Program-made: the position numbers and the translations under genes
In this document: positions 16,658 through 45,500 of the stretch, in pieces
How the letters are laid out: the number at the start of each line of letters is the position of its first letter
Position numbering within the stretch: position 1 is the stretch's first letter
Notes under the pieces: model-generated
What the model saw: only the letters and a program-made list of their open reading frames with translations
Told to the model about the DNA's origin: nothing
Database searches by the model: none
Source: Octopus vulgaris
Taxonomy: Eukaryota
NCBI GenBank assembly: GCA_951406725.2
Contig: OX597825.1
Span: forward strand, 25,606,001-25,670,000
Direction: 5' to 3'
Length of the DNA stretch: 64,000 nt

Positions 16658-16661
16658 GTAT

Positions 16662-17579
16662 ACAGAAAAACAAAAGACGAAGGCAGGTGTATAAACAACA
16701 AGCAGGTGGATTAGTTTGACGCTCGGGGGAGAAAGTCTTTTACGTTTCCAGCCTAAGCTCTTCAACAGAAAAGAATACGAGGAAATAAATAGAGAGAGAA
16801 TAGAAAAAAAAATTGTGGATTTAGTAATCAATCACGGCGACCGGTTGGGAAAGACAGTTTGACAGGAGAACCACGAAGAAGGGGAGATAATAAAGTACTG
16901 GTGATCCAAAATCTGAGTGGGGTGCATGCGTGTGTGTATGCGAGAGTTTTTGTGTGTGGATGATGTGTGCGTATAATGGTGTGTAGTTGTGCAGATAATA
17001 GTGTGTGGTGCGGTGCTGGGAAGTGGTCAGTGCTAGTGTGTGCAGAGTGGTGTGTGGCGGTGTGGGGTGTAGTTGTGGGGTGTAGGTGTGGGGTGTAGGT
17101 GTGGGGTGTAGGTGTGGTGTGAGGTTGTGGGAGTGGGATGTGTGGGTGTGGAGTGTGGATGGCTGGGATATAAGTGAAGAGAGAAGGTGGGGGGGAGTGA
17201 AAAGTGGGAGTAGGTGTAAGATGAAAAGTGGAGAGGAGAGGAGTCAGATGAAGATGGAGGGGAGTTGAGCCCATGTGGCGCAAAGGAGTGAAGAGGGAAG
17301 ATTAATTCTAGTTCACGTCGAAGGCACGAGTTCAAATGGCCCCTGTGCAAAGACAGTCTGAACATAGAAAAGTGTTGTAATGAATGACCGGTAAAGTAGA
17401 AATGGCGCGAGACTGGGGTGTCATTACCGAATCTAATGTTTTGGAGGTGCTCCGCGGACCAGTCAGCCAAGCAGCGTCCTGTTTGACCGATGTACAGAGA
17501 AGGGCAAAAAGCGCAGGAGATACAGTAAAAAACGAAGTGCAGGTAAAAGAGTCATTTTCTTTTTTTTGCGAATTCTCCC

Positions 17580-19363: not shown

Positions 19364-20845
<1,482 letters not shown>

Positions 20846-21989: not shown

Positions 21990-24120
21990 ACAAGGAGAGA
22001 TAATAAAGAAGTTATTAAGACCTTCTATTATGTCATGTATTTTCCCACAAATAAATCTAATACTGTGCAAATCTACTAAAACTGGAGACAGAAAAACCTT
22101 GAAGTAAGACCCTACATGGACGATAACAAACTTGCCAACGTCAGAAGAAACATTATGAAAAAAAGGTTACTAACAGAATTAGAAATTGACCAAATTAAAC
22201 AATCGGAAAGGGATAAAAAGAACGAAAATGCAGCTAAAGGAAATAATTATAGACCAGCTCACGTCTGAGGAAAATGCAATAATTCTTAGAAAGAGTTAAT
22301 GTAACTGATAAGGAAAGTCAAATACTGTCTGAACAACCATAAACACTAAGACATGAAAATGAAATAGATGAAGAAAGTCACACAGAAATTGACCCAGCAG
22401 AACTACATGATCTAAAAAATCAAATCATGATTGAATGGCTAAAAATTAAAGAAACCAGTATCAATGAACGCAATGCTCTCCCAAAAATTCGCAATTCTAA
22501 CCAAAACCTGAAAGTAATTGGTAAAATCCGCCTTGCACTTAAGGATATAATTTTAGCTAATGATGTTGATATTATAGATCTCAACCACCTGTACTATGTA
22601 TTCGAGAAAATCTCAACGATTGTATGTAGTGAAAATATTAGAAAACGACATTTCCACAAAAAGCCTACTTGGCAAGAGCGTATTCAACATCAAATTCAGC
22701 TACTTAGGTCCGATATAGAATATTTAAAAAAACCTTAAGTTTGACAAGACTATCAAACCAAAAGGTTGCAAGACGCAAGGAAAATTTTAGAAAAATAAAG
22801 AAGGAAATAAGTGGAAATTTTACCGGTGAGTGTGTTAATTATAAGGCACTAAAAGATAATGACTCTCCCCAGACACAACAGTAAAGAAAAATATAATATG
22901 AAAACCATACTTGACATCCATAGCATCATAGAAACAATCAAATAAAAGCTATGTGCTAAAGCTGCCCGCACAGCAAGGTATGAAAAGCGCGTTAGATTCT
23001 TCAAGGACAACAACATGTTCAAAAATAACCCCAAAACGTTTTACAGGAAGATAGGGAAAATATCAGTTACAGTAAAGTCTGTTAAAAGAAGTGCAGGAAT
23101 TTTGGAATAAAATGTGGGCAGAAGAAAAAACTCACAACGAAAAGGCCCCTTGGATTGCTTACAGACTTAAACTCCTTAGAAGAACAAAAGTGCAAGGGTA
23201 CCAAAGTAGAGGATGTAAGATCTGCTCTCAGGAAGTCAAACAAATGGAAGGTGTAAAATTGCTAACAAAACTTTACAACAAGGTTTTGCAACATCTTGGT
23301 ATGATTTCCCCCTTGGCTAGTAAATAGTGTTGCATTCCTACTTCCAAAAAATGAAGAAACTAATGAACCAAAAAATTATAGATCCATAACCTGCTTAACA
23401 ACAATGCATAAGACATTAACATCTGTCTTGACTGAATATAGAAAGTGATACATTTTAATAGAAAGTGATACATTTCTTAATGAAAGGATGTAAACGTGGG
23501 TCCTATGGTTGTAAATATCAGCTACTCGTCAATAATTTTGGAAGATTGTCACAAACGACACAAAAAGTTGTGGATAGCCTGGATAGACTATAAAAAAAAG
23601 CTTTTGATAGTCTACCACATATCTGGATTAAAAAATGTCTGGAAATGTATAAAATAGCACCTACTCTGTGAAACTTCTTGTCTGTAAGTATGAGATCATG
23701 GAGAACCACACCGACTTTGGACAGTGACAATGAATCTCTCAATGCTAGATGTGAAAAAAATTCATGTTGCATTTCCCAGGGTGATTCCCTATCACCACTC
23801 CTCTTTCGTCTAGATTTAATACCTCTCTCGAAATTGCTCGATGATATACAATACGGCTATAAAATATTTGATAAAAATATAAATCATCTCATTTACATGT
23901 ATGATTTAAAGCTGTTTGCAAAAAATGACCAGCATCTATAGGGCTTACTAGCGATTGTTAAACAATTTAGTGATGATAGGATGACATCTGGCCTCGATAA
24001 ATATGCAAAAGCTACCTTTATCGAAGAAAGAACGACAGAAATATCCAACGTTAATCTTGACCAACAGAATGTCATAAAGAAGTTAGAACCAACGGAGAGC
24101 TACAAATACCTAGAGGTATT
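21990..24120 (+). mobile_element. R4/Dong-clade non-LTR retrotransposon, decayed ORF from N-terminus through RT
   Basis: KLANVRRNIMKKRLLTELEI, RYEKRVRFFKDNNMFKNNPKTFYR, EFWNKMW, NYRSITCL, KRGSYGCKYQLL, AFDSLPHIWI, QGDSLSPLLF, HLIYMYDLKLFA, YKYLEV; many stops and frameshifts. Confidence 0.92.
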
Positions 24121-25624: not shown

Positions 25625-26100
25625 TATTATTATTTCCTTTTATCTCAGGTTTTGTTGGAAATCCTGGAATCTTGCATGCGTAGCAGACTTGCTACCTGCA
25701 GCCTACGGTGCCATGCTATCCGTTCTTTCCTGATTATTCCGACCGTGCCAAGGAGGCAAACCTTTTGTATCAGTTCTACTGGGCACTCTATTCCAATTTT
25801 CTTTATATTCCCTTTGGTGCCTTCTGATACTGTTTCCGATAACCCAAAAATAATTGGCACTATTTTCACCTTCTTTATTTTCCACAACCGGTCTATTTTG
25901 TACTTAAGAGGGTTGTATTTATATATTTTTCTGCTTTCTGTCTTGACTATTCGTGGGTTATAGTGGCATGCAACATCAACTATATGGCACATATGGTGCA
26001 TCTTTTCGATCACCACAAGGTCCGGTCTGTTATACTCTAGCACCTGATCTGTTTGGATCGGAAAATCCAAGAAGAATTTTCTCGTTTGCGACTCCGTAAC
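25625..26100 (-). mobile_element. R4/Dong 3' fragment (restriction-like endonuclease domain)
   Basis: WDFPIQTDQVLEYNRPDLVVIEK...IVDVAC...KIYKY...RLWKIKKVKIVPII...QKVCLLGT; flanked by (TAA)/(TAG) repeats. Confidence 0.92.
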
Positions 26101-26137
26101 TCTTTGCTGTCTGTGCTCATAACCACCACTCTCTGCA

Positions 26138-26216
<79 letters not shown>

Positions 26217-29227: not shown

Positions 29228-29475
29228 CACTCTCTCTCACACACACACATATATACACACACACACACACTCATATATGCGTAAATACACATTCATATGT
29301 GATCGTCTTTAAACTCTATATTCATATTCTTCAATATGAAGTTAGTTTCTCTTCCTCAATCTCCTTCACCTACACTTGTTGCCCTTCAGTTCTTTTCCTT
29401 CTCTCTTCCATCGCCTTCTCTTTTGCTTGCTTTTCTAATTCTCCCATTCTTTCCCAACATTATTGAAAGCTATAT

Positions 29476-29889
29476 ATTGCTTTACTACCCACAAGGGGCT
29501 AAACACAGAGCGGATAAACAAGGACAGAAAACGGATTAAGTCGATTATATCGACCCCAGTGCGTAACTAGTACTTATTTAATCGACCCCGGAAGGATGAA
29601 AGGCAAAGTCGACCTCGGCGGAATTTGAACTCAGAACGTAGCGGCAGACGAAATACCTATTTCTTTATTACCCACAAGGGGCTAAACACAGAGGGGACAA
29701 ACAAGGACAGACATAGGTATTAAGTCGATTACATCGACCCCAGTGCGTAACTGGTACTTAATTTATCGACCCCGAAAGGATGAACGGCAAAGTCGACCTG
29801 GGCGGAATTTGAACTCACAACGTAACGCAGACGAAATACCGCTAAGCATTTCGCCCGGCGTGCTAATGTTTCTGCCAGCTCGCCGCCTT
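29476..29889 (-). mobile_element. SINE A head-to-tail dimer
   Basis: Two tail-1 units; the second starts at internal gtatttcgtctg; 18-bp TSD cattattgaaagctatat at 29458-29475 and 29890-29907. Confidence 0.92.
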
Positions 29890-34147: not shown

Positions 34148-34966
34148 AATGCTGAAAGATATACAATGTCAACTTGACGCTTCTTGTTGCGTGCTGATTA
34201 CACTTTGTATAAGAGTAACCTCGGCTGATCAATGAACATTTGTCAGTAGAGAAACCAAGGTGGCGACGAATTATTTGTGAAAAAGGATGGTAACAAAGCA
34301 AAAGCAGAGTAAATAATTCAAGAGAAGTGTAAATGTATAGTGGTGGTGGTGATAGTAGTGGGGGTGGGGTGGGTGTTATTTCAAGTGTTTACATTTTCAG
34401 TTTAGATTCCTTGGACTCTCAATAAAGTTAATTAGCACAAAGAACGTAATTCAATAGCACACGCACACACTCACACACACATACACATACATACAGACAC
34501 ATACACACATGAACACGCACACACACAAATTCAGTACACATATATTATAATGTATGCAGAATTCCGAGGTGCTTCTTGTGTGAATAACGCACGATTCAAA
34601 GTGTAGGATGAGATTCTTAAAAAGAAGTACCATGAGAGAAACGAAAAGTTTGTGAAGGAGTTAAGATAAGACAAAGACTACGGGAATAGATTCGCTTTGT
34701 GATGAAAGAATTTTCTAATTAGAAATTCCGCTTCCTTAATTTGGTCCTTACATTGGAGCTAGAGGATTATAAATTGAAGTTTCATTCCTTATGTTCAGGC
34801 GGCACCCAATGTTCTTTAATCTATGTATTATATGTATTCTTTCCTTTATGCACGGTCTTCAGTTTTTGTTTTATCCGTCGGTATACAATCTCGGTCTATC
34901 TAAAGCCATTCATTTTATAGGTCTATATTTAACCACTACGCCATATGCCCACGGGATAATCAGCGG

Positions 34967-41199: not shown

Positions 41200-41895
41200 T
41201 AATTTTTGTCACAGGGCCAGAAATTTTGAGGGAAGGGGGAAGACAATTATATCGACACCAGTGCTCAACTGATGTTTATTTTATCAGAAAGGATAAATGG
41301 AAAAGATGACCAGCGGGATTTTGCCTTAGAAATTAAGCCGGAAAAAAATGCCGCTTAGCATTTATCTAGCTCGCTAACGAATCTAGCAGCTCGCCGCCTG
41401 TACTGGTTAGATAAAACTGGTTTCAAAGTCTGGCACGAAGCTATTAATATTAGAGGAGGGGGTAAGTCGATTATACCGACCCAGTGCTCAACTGGTAGTT
41501 ATTTTATCGAAACGGATGAAGAGCAAACTTGACATCAACGGCATCTGAAATCAGAAAGTAAAGCTAGGAAGATGGCGCCAAGCAGGTTATCTACTGTGCT
41601 AAAGTCTTTGCCAGCGCGCCGCTTTTCAAATTTTCACACAAGGCTAGCAATTTGAGGTGAGATAAGTCGATTACATCGATTCCAGTGCTCAGCTGGGTAA
41701 AACAGCATTACTCAGGTATCGTTGGGTGATATCACTGCTACGCCGAACAAAATGTTTAGCGGCATTTCGCCCTTCTTTATGTTCTGAATTGAAATTCTAC
41801 TGTGGTCGACTTTGTCTTTCATCCTTTCGGGGTCGATGTAATCTACTTAAACACGCCCCCGAAATTGCGACCCCGTACCCAAATTGAAACCAATA
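41200..41895. mobile_element. Cluster of old SINE A copies (three on -, one on +)
   Basis: Degenerate family A units at ~41205, 41420 and 41625 (-) and ~41740-41895 (+). Confidence 0.8.
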
Positions 41896-42137
41896 TTCAG
41901 TATAGCAAAACTTGAGCTTTTAAAATGTTCTAAATGATGTTTTAAAACGCTGGGTATATGTAAAAATTCCTGTTTTTTATGTTCCTTTCATCATCCCAAG
42001 ATTGATTAAGACATATATTCGTTGTTAATAATACTCATTTGCTGAAGGTATATTGTATTTCGGATAATCTCATAAAGAAGTGTGCATCCTAACTTCTTCG
42101 TTTAGTTAATCAATACGATTAGTACTGGCCACGTACA

Positions 42138-42216
<79 letters not shown>

Positions 42217-42275
42217 CCTATAATTTTTTACCAGTTTCATTCCTTGGCAACGCGTGTGCGAACATCAATGTGTTT

Positions 42276-42427
42276 ATTATTTACGTTATTTACATTTGAC
42301 GGATATTTGTCCTCATCTTGTTTGTTGTTAACAAAACGCTTCGGCTGATATACCCTCCAGCTTTCATCAGGTGCCTTGGGGAAATTTCGAACCTGAGTTC
42401 TCATTCCTAAGCTATTTTTCGATGTTG

Positions 42428-42462
<35 letters not shown>

Positions 42463-42544
42463 GTTATTATTGTTATTATTAATCGAACTCGGAATCTTGG
42501 GGTTAGAAGCCCGCGCTCTTAGCCACTACGCCATATGCCAGTGT
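42276..42544 (-). mobile_element. SINE family E: tRNA head + (AAT)n + hammerhead-containing tail
   Basis: Head ggcatatggcgtagtggctaagagcgcggg...gagttcgatt; HHR-like cac-CTGATGA-a-agctg..cagcc-GAAGC-GTT at 42373-42335; 12-bp TSD atcaatgtgttt at 42264-42275 and 42545-42556. Confidence 0.85.
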
Positions 42545-45500
42545 ATCAATGTGTTTGTTCTTTATTGGCTTCGTATACGTGACCTTTGCAATATATGCAA
42601 TTTCCTGTCGTGCAGCAAGGATATGAAAAGCAATATCAAGAGAGATCAGATGCATTACGCGTATGAATAAATTGACAATATCTGAGGAAGTTCTGTACCT
42701 AGGAGATATCAGAATCTACACAATCAATAAGCAACCACCTGCTTCGGGGCAACGCGATTCAAGATGAAAATATAATTGAATGATGATTAGTTATAATGCC
42801 CGCCTTCAAATGGGATTCCTGCAGACATTTACTCATAGAAAGGCTCTCAATTATATACATATTCCAAGGAGAATATCACTAATAGACATGCAAAAAGCGA
42901 TTTAAACCCTGTGGCATTCTGCGACATTTCCGTGAACACCACGAGTATATATGAACTGAATAAGGGTTTGATTAAGGGATCACGCAGTGTAAAGGATCTA
43001 AGTTACCCCCAATTGCATCCAGTCTTTCTACAGTTCAAAACTTAAACAGTGTCATCTTAGATACACTGATGGAAATCTAAAGATGCGTTGGTCCTAGCTA
43101 GAATACCTTCAATGTTAGGTGTATTCAATTAAACCACCAATAAAAATGTTTCATACGGCTTCCTTGAAAGACCGAAAACTGTAAATGGATCTGCTTCGGT
43201 TTCGATGACGAGTATTTAATTGTTCAATCAACTCACCTAATTGCTCAATGAATTAGCTTTAAGTAGCTGAGTATTCCGCAGGCGTGCATACCCTTATCAT
43301 AATTCTGTGTGTACCAGTACATGTACGGTCTAGTCGATGGATTTCCGTACAGTTTCCGCCTACCTAATTACACCCACAAAGCCTGGAACTGCCCGAAGTT
43401 ACGTCACGTATCGGGATCCAGCCTTGGACCTCACAAGTGAGAGTACATCTTAATGTATCGGTCATTCTGCGTCCAGTACAGCATGTTTCACATACTTTAC
43501 CTTGATTAAAGCTATAGATGGTGAACAATTGGTCAGCATCACATCATCTTGTTACAGAAAACAATAGCCGTATTCATTATAAATAACAAACAAAAATAGA
43601 CAAACATAAATGGGGATCAAGTATCCTGTTTGAACACCAACCGACAAAAATAGACAAAAAGTTAACATCCATATGGAAAAATATACGTACACAAACACGC
43701 ACACACATATGTATGTATGTATTCATGCATGCATGCATGCATGTAAGTATGTATATATGTACGTATGTATGTATGTATATATGTATTCATGCATGCATGT
43801 ATATATGTATGCATGTATGTATGTGTGTATGCATGTATGTATGTATGTGTATGTATGTATGTATGTATGTATGTATGTATGTATGTATGTGTATGTATGT
43901 ATGTATGTATGTATGTATGTATGTATGTATGTATGTATGTATATATGTATCCATGTAGGTATGTATGTGTGTGTCTGTCTGTCTGCCTACTTGTTTGTCT
44001 GTCTGTCTGTATCTATCTGTCTATCTATATATCTATCTATTTATCTAGGCGTACAAAGAAGAAGCACTCGACTTATCTCGAGGAAAATATAGATATTTTT
44101 GCTTAGAGTATTTAGATTGGATCTGCACTTTAGTGTGAAAGCACGCTTCGAATTGTTATGATAAACATGGTTTTTAGACAAGTGTAATTATTACTGGATG
44201 ATATGTTATGTTTGGTGGTATCCCAGCATGAACACAGCTTTAAAGCTGAAACAATTTAAAGGTTTAAAGATTAACCAGTTTATACTACATTAGAGTTTGA
44301 GACTATTGCTGAATGACTACTGAATGTGAGAAACAATTCTGGCACAGAAGATTAGAAAAGTTTACCTTACTCCGGTCACAACCTGAAATGAAGTGAAACA
44401 TTTCTGAAGTACACTAAAAATGATGGGATAAATTTAGGAACAAATGATTGGTAAATTACTGACAGGGAGCTCCGTTGATGGCAGCATTATAAAAGTTCAG
44501 TCTACTTGTTAAAGGACAAAGTCGGCTTTTAACATACACGAATGAATAAAGAGGGGCTTTGTAAAGAATGCTGCTGGTTAGAGTGGGTAAGTAATTTCTA
44601 TCATTCCAAAGCCTCCGAGTATAGAGATATAGACTGGAATAATTTTCATTGTTACCGGATCTGAAGTGCTACATATACCTCTTTAAAGGCTTTGGCTGAT
44701 TCCTGTGTAGTTCATCGCGATAACATTGAGTAGATTCGGTATCACCCTTTAGACTACTAAATTGAAAATTGATAATTTTTTAATGATTAATATGCCATTA
44801 TTAGGTTATTAGTGAGCTTACGATTTTTAGAATTTTGTATTACATTTTTTATTAGTATTTAACTTATATTCTTTACTGTTGCCTTTATTTCATTCTTTGT
44901 TATTTTTCCATTTACTTAACCTTTTAACTACATTGAAAATCATTGGGTTCACCACAACTCTATTATTTGTGCTTCACCAATATTCTTAGTTTTGGAAAAT
45001 TCTAAATCCTTCATGGTGTATTCTATATTCTATAATACCTTTTAATTGCAACTCTTACACCAAAATTAACATCTAAATATATTCAAACGTAATATCTTTT
45101 AAAATTTGATTTAATTGGATCTAATATAGTTGGTTTTAACATACACCTTATTTCAAGCAGCGTTTATTTTATTGTTAGTTATACTTTTATAGGTGCCTAA
45201 ACTCAACTTCCTCCATCTCTATTCCCCCTTTCTTTGCTCCCTCTGAAAGCAACATAATTTACCTTCGTATCCTAAAGAAATCTTAGCATGTACTTAGAAG
45301 TAGCGTTTTAACAAATATATTCAACGAAGTTTAAAATCCTGCTTAAAAAAACTTTCTTTATTTTTCCTATTACGTTTTAGTTCGAACTTTTCCTTTTTAT
45401 AAAGGTGGTTTTATATTAGAAGTTCCATTTCCTAAATTGTTTAACATTTACTTCGTTCTTTTGAGGGGATATTTTTAATGTTAATATAATATTAATAATA

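Follow-up and report, generated by a model that had tools for sequence, protein, structure and literature searches.

A tRNA-headed, hammerhead-bearing short insert in Octopus vulgaris read as a solitary pseudo-LTR of a Penelope/Poseidon PLE

The closest described relatives of the octopus element reported here are Poseidon of Anolis carolinensis (PAc) and the Penelope of Drosophila virilis, in which a single ORF encodes RT together with a GIY-YIG endonuclease at its C-terminus, and in which a pseudo-LTR overlaps the start of that ORF, with a hammerhead at the ORF start and a promoter in the pseudo-LTR (PMC11167929, PMC8557442, PMC2377424). Their insertions have two 3' ends that lie a 30-40 nt tail apart, and include inverted and partial-tandem forms (PMC11167929, PMC8557442). 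In anole Poseidon, RT begins synthesis internally, at two positions some 110-170 nt into the ORF; the hammerhead lies at the ORF start, and the principal substrate is RNA that remains uncut (PMC11167929). The internal promoter of D. virilis Penelope lies in the pseudo-LTR and is described as TATA-less and LINE-like, polymerase III being unmentioned in the available text of that paper (PMC2377424). The octopus element shares this ORF, pseudo-LTR and insertion architecture, with a promoter that is putative here; unlike either of them, however, it holds within its pseudo-LTR a tRNA-Arg-like head with A and B boxes followed by an (AAT)n run. Its hammerhead is of the minimal type I known from PLEs, with CUGANGA, an extra nucleotide between 9 and 10.1, a G10.1-C11.1 pair, a helix II of 5-6 bp, a helix I of 5 bp and a palindromic ACGU that replaces helix III, and compared with the hammerheads of Cervera and de la Pena (2014), as far as these are set out in the available text, it shows no structural difference, the copy analysed here being mutated at three positions (PMC4209133).

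Other short repeats share parts of this plan. Schistosome Sm-alpha and Sj-alpha are likewise tRNA-related, short hammerhead repeats present in thousands of copies, but their hammerheads are canonical and lie in tandem repeats that are cut into monomers, with no parent ORF described in the available parts of these reports (PMC2770079, PMC6765202), whereas the octopus unit belongs, as an integral part, to a PLE that codes for protein. TRIMp3 elements (Helenus with a tRNA, Cassandra and Ajax with a 5S sequence) similarly carry a small-RNA-derived Pol III promoter sequence in their terminal repeat, proposed to have arisen by SINE insertion, yet these belong to the LTR elements, are non-autonomous, carry PBS/PPT and have TSDs of 4-5 bp (PMC10886601), while in octopus the head sits in a PLE pseudo-LTR and is carried by ORF-bearing copies. 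Animal non-LTR retrozymes are also short, hammerhead-bearing and pseudo-LTR-related, and differ in forming head-to-tail tandem repeats that give circular RNA (PMC7229834; bioRxiv 10.64898/2026.07.22.740005); the main text of the preprint contains neither 'tRNA' nor 'octopus'.

The unit lies in a window of 64,000 nucleotides of the O. vulgaris genome (contig OX597825.1, positions 25,606,001 to 25,670,000), to which all coordinates below refer. Direct reading of 41800-43000 reveals a 269-base insert at 42276..42544 on the minus strand, in the order head, (AAT/AAC)n, hammerhead motif and tail, and every feature of the minus-strand anatomy given in the preliminary description (tRNA-like head, AAT/AAC run, hammerhead-like tail) is present. 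It is bracketed by an exact 12-bp repeat, at 42545..42556 on the 5' side of the element and at 42264..42275 on its 3' side, and as this direct repeat occurs exactly twice within the window, the perfect TSD reported earlier stands. The tRNA-Arg-like head of the PLE pseudo-LTR occupies 42481..42544 (minus strand), as delimited by the family alignment and the comparison with the genome's own tRNAs, and the same head is found 3' of the ORF stop in long copies. It begins in a remnant of the palindrome TGCCC-AC-GGGCA, which places tRNA +1 at 42540, the A box TGGCGTAGTGG at 42533-42523 and the B box GAGTTCGATT at 42490-42481, the latter having been shortened in this copy by a deletion of ~15 nt that leaves it without its last CC. 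The (AAT/AAC)n microsatellite within the pseudo-LTR follows at about 42425..42480, its length varying from copy to copy, and then positions 1-149 of the pseudo-LTR tail at 42276..42424, which end in the first of two 3'-end clusters of the family and so lack the optional 30-40 nt tail extension. An ATG at 42404 opens the first 43 codons of the PLE RT-endonuclease ORF (42276..42404, open up to the end of the element), and overlapping this ORF is a minimal type I hammerhead motif at 42330..42375, with CTGATGA at 42370-42364, GAAGCGTT at 42342-42335 and a predicted cut between 42335 and 42334, all on the minus strand. A second, internally deleted relic of the same family lies on the minus strand at 34920..34955, where the palindrome and the start of the head (-4..+21) are fused with the tail end via a shared TTAA; the head remnant noted earlier at 34929-34950 is therefore real and slightly larger than first drawn. 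Elsewhere in the window, 184 bp from the end of a common SINE-like repeat are duplicated in tandem (29475-29840), and there are decayed LINE-like coding fragments that are RT- and endonuclease-like by eye (19675-20732, 22343-22738 and 25645-26139).

That such units form a high-copy family, as had been predicted, is borne out by exact matches across the 2.8-Gb genome (G000) to a head 22-mer (3173), a hammerhead 24-mer (3470) and a tail 24-mer (at least 10,112), with reversed-pattern controls for all three motifs giving 0. Head and tail moreover move together as anticipated, since the head is followed by the tail in 20/30 head-anchored loci, and is found upstream in 43 of 85 tail-anchored arms (the first 100 tail-motif matches minus 15 that carry an intact hammerhead motif), the other 42 beginning in or past the microsatellite. 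The median mismatch to the family majority is 4.7% in 44 arms unselected for the ribozyme motif. We give practically no weight to the reading that the insert arose just once, as a local chimaera whose direct repeat is there by chance: tails do also follow the (AAT)n runs of other elements (e.g. L069, L083 and L088), but the family counts and the linkage of head and tail in both the head-anchored and the tail-anchored loci refute it, and a 12-bp TSD is expected by chance only at ~2e-4 (30x30 junction search). Because of these counts, this linkage and the family majority described below, we find neither a chimaera confined to a single locus nor a consensus without hammerhead geometry, the two outcomes that the preliminary description had named as speaking against it.

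In long copies the arrangement runs from the ORF stop through ~25 nt to the head, (AAT)n, ATG, hammerhead, tail and remaining ORF. The ORF was found upstream of the head in L084, L044, L049, L030, L082 and L012, and L136 has the full arrangement tail-ORF-head-(AAT)n-tail. What appeared as a 'ribozyme tail' is the first ~54 codons of an RT and GIY-YIG ORF: the frame from the ATG at 42404 passes through the hammerhead, and in L136 and L144 runs on into an N-terminal domain, which in L144 has 58% identity to an 806-aa relative. RT (PF00078, E 2e-10) lies upstream of the endonuclease, and the two share one ORF with GIY-YIG at the C-terminus (order as in L136); the GIY-YIG motif YSIPCSC..YKGE..R..EH was read from an alignment of the family (A1), no GIY-YIG domain being called by Pfam in the family ORF. 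The same alignment shows the CCHH residues, namely two Cys inside the GIY-YIG core and the invariant H222 and H229, and by inspection no CX2-5CxxC linker between RT and endonuclease, and a DKG motif precedes RT (LPADKGN in L136 and L147). Such a linker separates Neptune and Nematis, in the paper that also defines the CCHH and DKG motifs (PMC8557442). Since DKG and CCHH are present and the Neptune-type linker is absent, the parent is placed by its motifs in the Penelope/Poseidon group; protein relatives have 60-67%, up to 73%, amino acid identity, and one is labelled Octopus sinensis. The window unit is thus almost certainly a piece of a PLE. The chimaeric SINE/retrozyme first envisaged has to be given up, as head, microsatellite and hammerhead all belong to an autonomous PLE. 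The earlier suggestion that a PLE stands behind the unit's mobility was right in so far as a PLE was found as mobiliser, but the unit does not simply borrow a PLE 3' end, the whole of it being found inside the autonomous element.

The family majority, taken from the same 44 unselected arms, reads GACAC-CUGANGA-A-GGCUG..CAGCC-GAAA-CG-UU-GUGUU, and so restores the full minimal-hammerhead core that the window copy lost, which is what the proposed consensus check had looked for. Individual core positions are well kept, with GAAA at 15.1 in 40/44 arms, G at 10.1 in 41/44 and G at 1.1 in 39/44, and the entire core in 19/44; the free position N7 is the sole common non-CpG polymorphism of the core (30 T and 11 A among the 44). 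As the family keeps GAAA, G1.1 and G10.1, the window copy has three damaging changes, at 42362, 42339 and 42334 (hammerhead positions 10.1, 15.1 and 1.1), so that the copy is indeed mutated as described earlier (GAAGC, weak stem I), with one change beyond that tally. Stems I and II fold in an intact copy and not in the window copy by structure prediction, and on these sequence grounds the window hammerhead is likely dead. Our hammerhead call rests on the pattern and the family alignment; Rfam hammerhead models, proposed as a check, match neither the window copy nor the intact copy (nothing at E<=10). In the family the hammerhead is the usual PLE motif, for which cleavage is predicted only as a dimer or with protein help, the predicted cut falling after GAAACGUU at tail coordinate 90/91.

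Further hammerheads and deletion derivatives were met beside this family and within it. At 16660-17551 (minus strand) the window holds a 3' fragment of a second, different PLE family, in which a GIY-YIG-like stretch precedes a repeat rich in pyrimidines; the latter bears, near 16740-16770, a minimal hammerhead that has decayed, and the end of the fragment resembles L241, L248 and L249. Genome-wide there are 2508 further matches to the short-stem minimal hammerhead pattern (controls 9), mostly from one or a few pyrimidine-rich families in which stems I and II covary. Two unrelated loci, L353 (G000:C3:3.76 Mb) and L356 (C3:4.76 Mb), share a deletion junction that joins ORF +235 nt to the head palindrome, and represent a non-autonomous mini-element with two pseudo-LTRs; in L353 two hammerheads lie about 500 nt apart, making it a candidate retrozyme precursor. 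In L361 and L373 ORF +235 nt is joined to sequence that begins precisely at the predicted cut site, which a 4-nt microhomology is equally able to explain.

Inverted (head-to-head) partners are present in 44 of 89 hammerhead-anchored loci, L087 having been dropped as the partner of L086 and our chaining undercounting such partners, and in 47 of 85 tail-anchored arms. TSDs of at least 8 bp flank 19/44 inverted pairs (shuffle mean 0.31) as against 1/30 single units (shuffle mean 0.4; 15 singles beginning in a microsatellite left out), and the window copy, with a TSD around a single non-inverted unit, is the exception. This excess on inverted pairs may reflect both-strand priming by a dimeric protein. 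The 3' ends fall into two clusters, at tail 130-159 or 170-190, which are 30-40 nt apart and surround a predicted stem-loop, and partial-tandem pseudo-LTRs lie ahead of the ORF in 4/30 N-terminus loci, one more having a head that starts at -1. Inversions and two 3'-end clusters are PLE hallmarks. Some tail-only copies have their start within the (AAT)n at another retroelement's end (L069, L083, L088, L144, L159, L176, L188 and L198), which suggests that their 5' side was joined when the element's own (AAT)n annealed with microsatellites of the target.

Copies terminate 50-95 nt downstream of the predicted cut site, and therefore the inserted template was uncut there. Near the cut itself, 6/85 arms start at tail 90-94 compared with 1 at 56-89; but at least three of the six represent an internal deletion or a point change, and this stretch also holds the palindrome TGTTAACA, so that the starts are confounded as a footprint of cleavage. 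Another reading is a non-LTR retrozyme, in which tandem monomers are cut by the hammerhead, circularised and reinserted. Such an origin would fit the type I hammerhead and the length of the unit, which is within the range of retrozymes; a 2026 preprint has PLE pseudo-LTRs as the source of retrozymes (bioRxiv 10.64898/2026.07.22.740005, in its available text), and the two-hammerhead mini-element in L353 exists; we nevertheless judge it very improbable, because copies are solo or head-to-head, with no head-to-tail arrays in 90 loci bar partial doubles (L075, L079 and L204), their ends do not map to the cut site, and the ribozyme is of the minimal PLE type and not the canonical retrozyme type.

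The head has its best match in the genome's own tRNA-Arg(TCG), with a score of 64 where shuffled heads reached a best-of-all of 34.9 +/- 3.7 (0/300); the isotype is provisional because no more than 25 different tRNA sequences, the majority of them Lys and Thr, entered the comparison. The Rfam tRNA model aligns to the head in the correct register but at only 10.8 bits (E 9.7), which is not significant, and ARAGORN called no tRNA in the window or in 40 loci. The tRNA-derived head claimed at the outset is accordingly supported by the own-tRNA match and the shuffles, and weakly by Rfam. In the family majority the A and B boxes are intact and the tRNA stems decayed. We found no tRNA head at 29/30 other minimal-hammerhead loci of the genome, the 30th being of the same family, nor ahead of the 86 hammerhead-like motifs found among 80 PLE loci from metagenomes. 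The unusual trait is the tRNA-derived head at the copy boundary of an otherwise known element class, and it looks new. Octopus SINEs, which bear the names OR1 and OR2, were reportedly the subject of Ohshima and Okada in 1994. Papers on octopus repeats list Penelope and tRNA-SINE families, without this link in their available text (PMC13282606, PMC8967140), and a tRNA-headed PLE was not found in the literature that we searched, a search that lay outside Repbase, Dfam and SINEBase, where the family may be catalogued.

Heads start preferentially at one place. In one sample 36/76 begin at -7..+4 (a 12-nt interval), 17 extend further and 23 are shorter, and in a second, overlapping sample the numbers are 13/43, 10 and 20. 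The 22-mer directly upstream of the head has 758 matches against 3173 for the head, and is thus about 4-fold rarer. The palindrome TGCCC-AC-GGGCA spans -7..+5 and coincides with this 5' peak.

In a refinement of the model first proposed, the solo units would be a true SINE that is transcribed by Pol III from its own A and B boxes, uses the PLE protein in trans and possesses short masters of its own. The family majority does combine head and tail with intact A/B boxes and no T4 terminator, the head is about 4-fold in excess over the sequence upstream of it, internal RT initiation as reported for anole Poseidon would turn any tail-containing RNA into a substrate (PMC11167929), and non-autonomous masters exist in the family, as the junction common to L353 and L356 attests. 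However, a comparison of 41 long with 68 short heads, confined to the head region, revealed no position that differs at p<0.001, and the only frequent polymorphism, at position 64, occurs in both (22/68 short, 16/41 long). Short and long heads are without diagnostic bases, and therefore no separate SINE lineage was detected. Considering in addition that the head belongs to an autonomous element, and that PLE-like inversions prevail and not single TSD-flanked units, a true SINE seems to us quite improbable.

Taken together, we propose, with a probability of roughly 60%, that the insert is a solitary, damaged pseudo-LTR of a tRNA-headed Penelope/Poseidon PLE, made by RT that began inside the RNA, at the tail, and proceeded back as far as a predicted transcript start at the head. 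Judging from where genomic copies begin, transcription likely starts at the first base of the head, where 5' ends pile up, with the A/B-box head as a putative internal promoter, either of Pol III type or with a Pol II start at the same place. By analogy with anole Poseidon, the PLE protein would nick DNA that is AT-rich, bind its own RNA over the first ~170 nt of the ORF, and prime internally. RT initiation at the tail of the 5' pseudo-LTR would then copy only the head, microsatellite, hammerhead and tail, so that the product would be a unit of ~270 nt for which no separate SINE is needed. The frequent head-to-head pairs with TSDs would result if priming took place on both strands. The hammerhead had no part in forming the 3' end of the window insertion. 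Against a start at the head, only 1/9 ORF-bearing copies with an upstream head begins at the head's first base.

The same PLE fragment might instead carry its head as an inert passenger, an old captured SINE head, with fold-back at the palindrome or cDNA annealing setting the 5' boundary. The RNA reads were of no help in locating a start site. Three raw RNA runs under one organism label, from ordinary cDNA of unspecified strandedness, were aligned to L210 at 85% likeness. Depth is equal on both strands and tracks copy number, no start or end pile-ups were seen in the three runs, including at the hammerhead cut site, and the commonest fold-back (strand-switch) joint lies at +2, within the palindrome. 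Reads that show no dedicated transcript, and this top joint at +2, favour an inert head, as do the position of the palindrome exactly at the 5' peak and the finding that, of 34 inverted pairs that include any head, 24 possess an arm whose end falls at -7..+4. Conversely, non-inverted singles start there too (the window copy, L065, L074, L169, L171 and L178), the family majority has kept both boxes intact although its tRNA stems have decayed, and in many inverted pairs one arm stands at +1 while the other is cut elsewhere, which an RNA end fits better than a symmetric fold-back. We therefore regard an inert head as a possible but rather unlikely account. In the same reads an excess of A>G/T>C was considered as RNA editing and rejected, being explained by CpG decay in the reference copy.

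Returning to the solitary pseudo-LTR with a head-borne start, we observe that the 2,688 nt of the family majority, read on the sense strand, contain no run of T>=4 (codon-shuffle P 0.10). Other LINE-like ORFs of the genome are also T4-poor (e.g. 0 in 442 codons of L058), and nine distant metagenome PLE ORFs have 6-42 such runs, but are more T-rich. The absence of T4 is compatible with Pol III; it is non-specific and not evidence for Pol III. A stronger proposal, in which a protein-coding PLE has taken a Pol III promoter from tRNA-Arg into its pseudo-LTR and now depends on it for transcription, internal RT initiation turning the element's own 5' repeat into tens of thousands of SINE-like units, is speculative and in our opinion doubtful.

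Our findings correct an annotation trap, in that short tRNA-headed SINE-lookalikes in the octopus genome are pieces of a PLE, and they provide genomic support, from a mollusc-type genome, for the internal initiation of RT at two sites that was demonstrated in vitro with anole Poseidon. With an inert head, the window unit would be an ordinary fragment of a PLE. Were the A/B-box head to function as a promoter, the capture of small-RNA promoters, as in SINEs and the TRIMp3 LTR elements, would extend to PLE pseudo-LTRs, and a link open to testing would connect PLEs with retrozymes and with SINEs that bear hammerheads. Should Pol III capture itself prove true, a SINE would here be emerging from a PLE, the first case of a SINE-like element partnered by a PLE and not by a LINE, and may illustrate a possible route to hammerhead SINEs of the Sm-alpha type.
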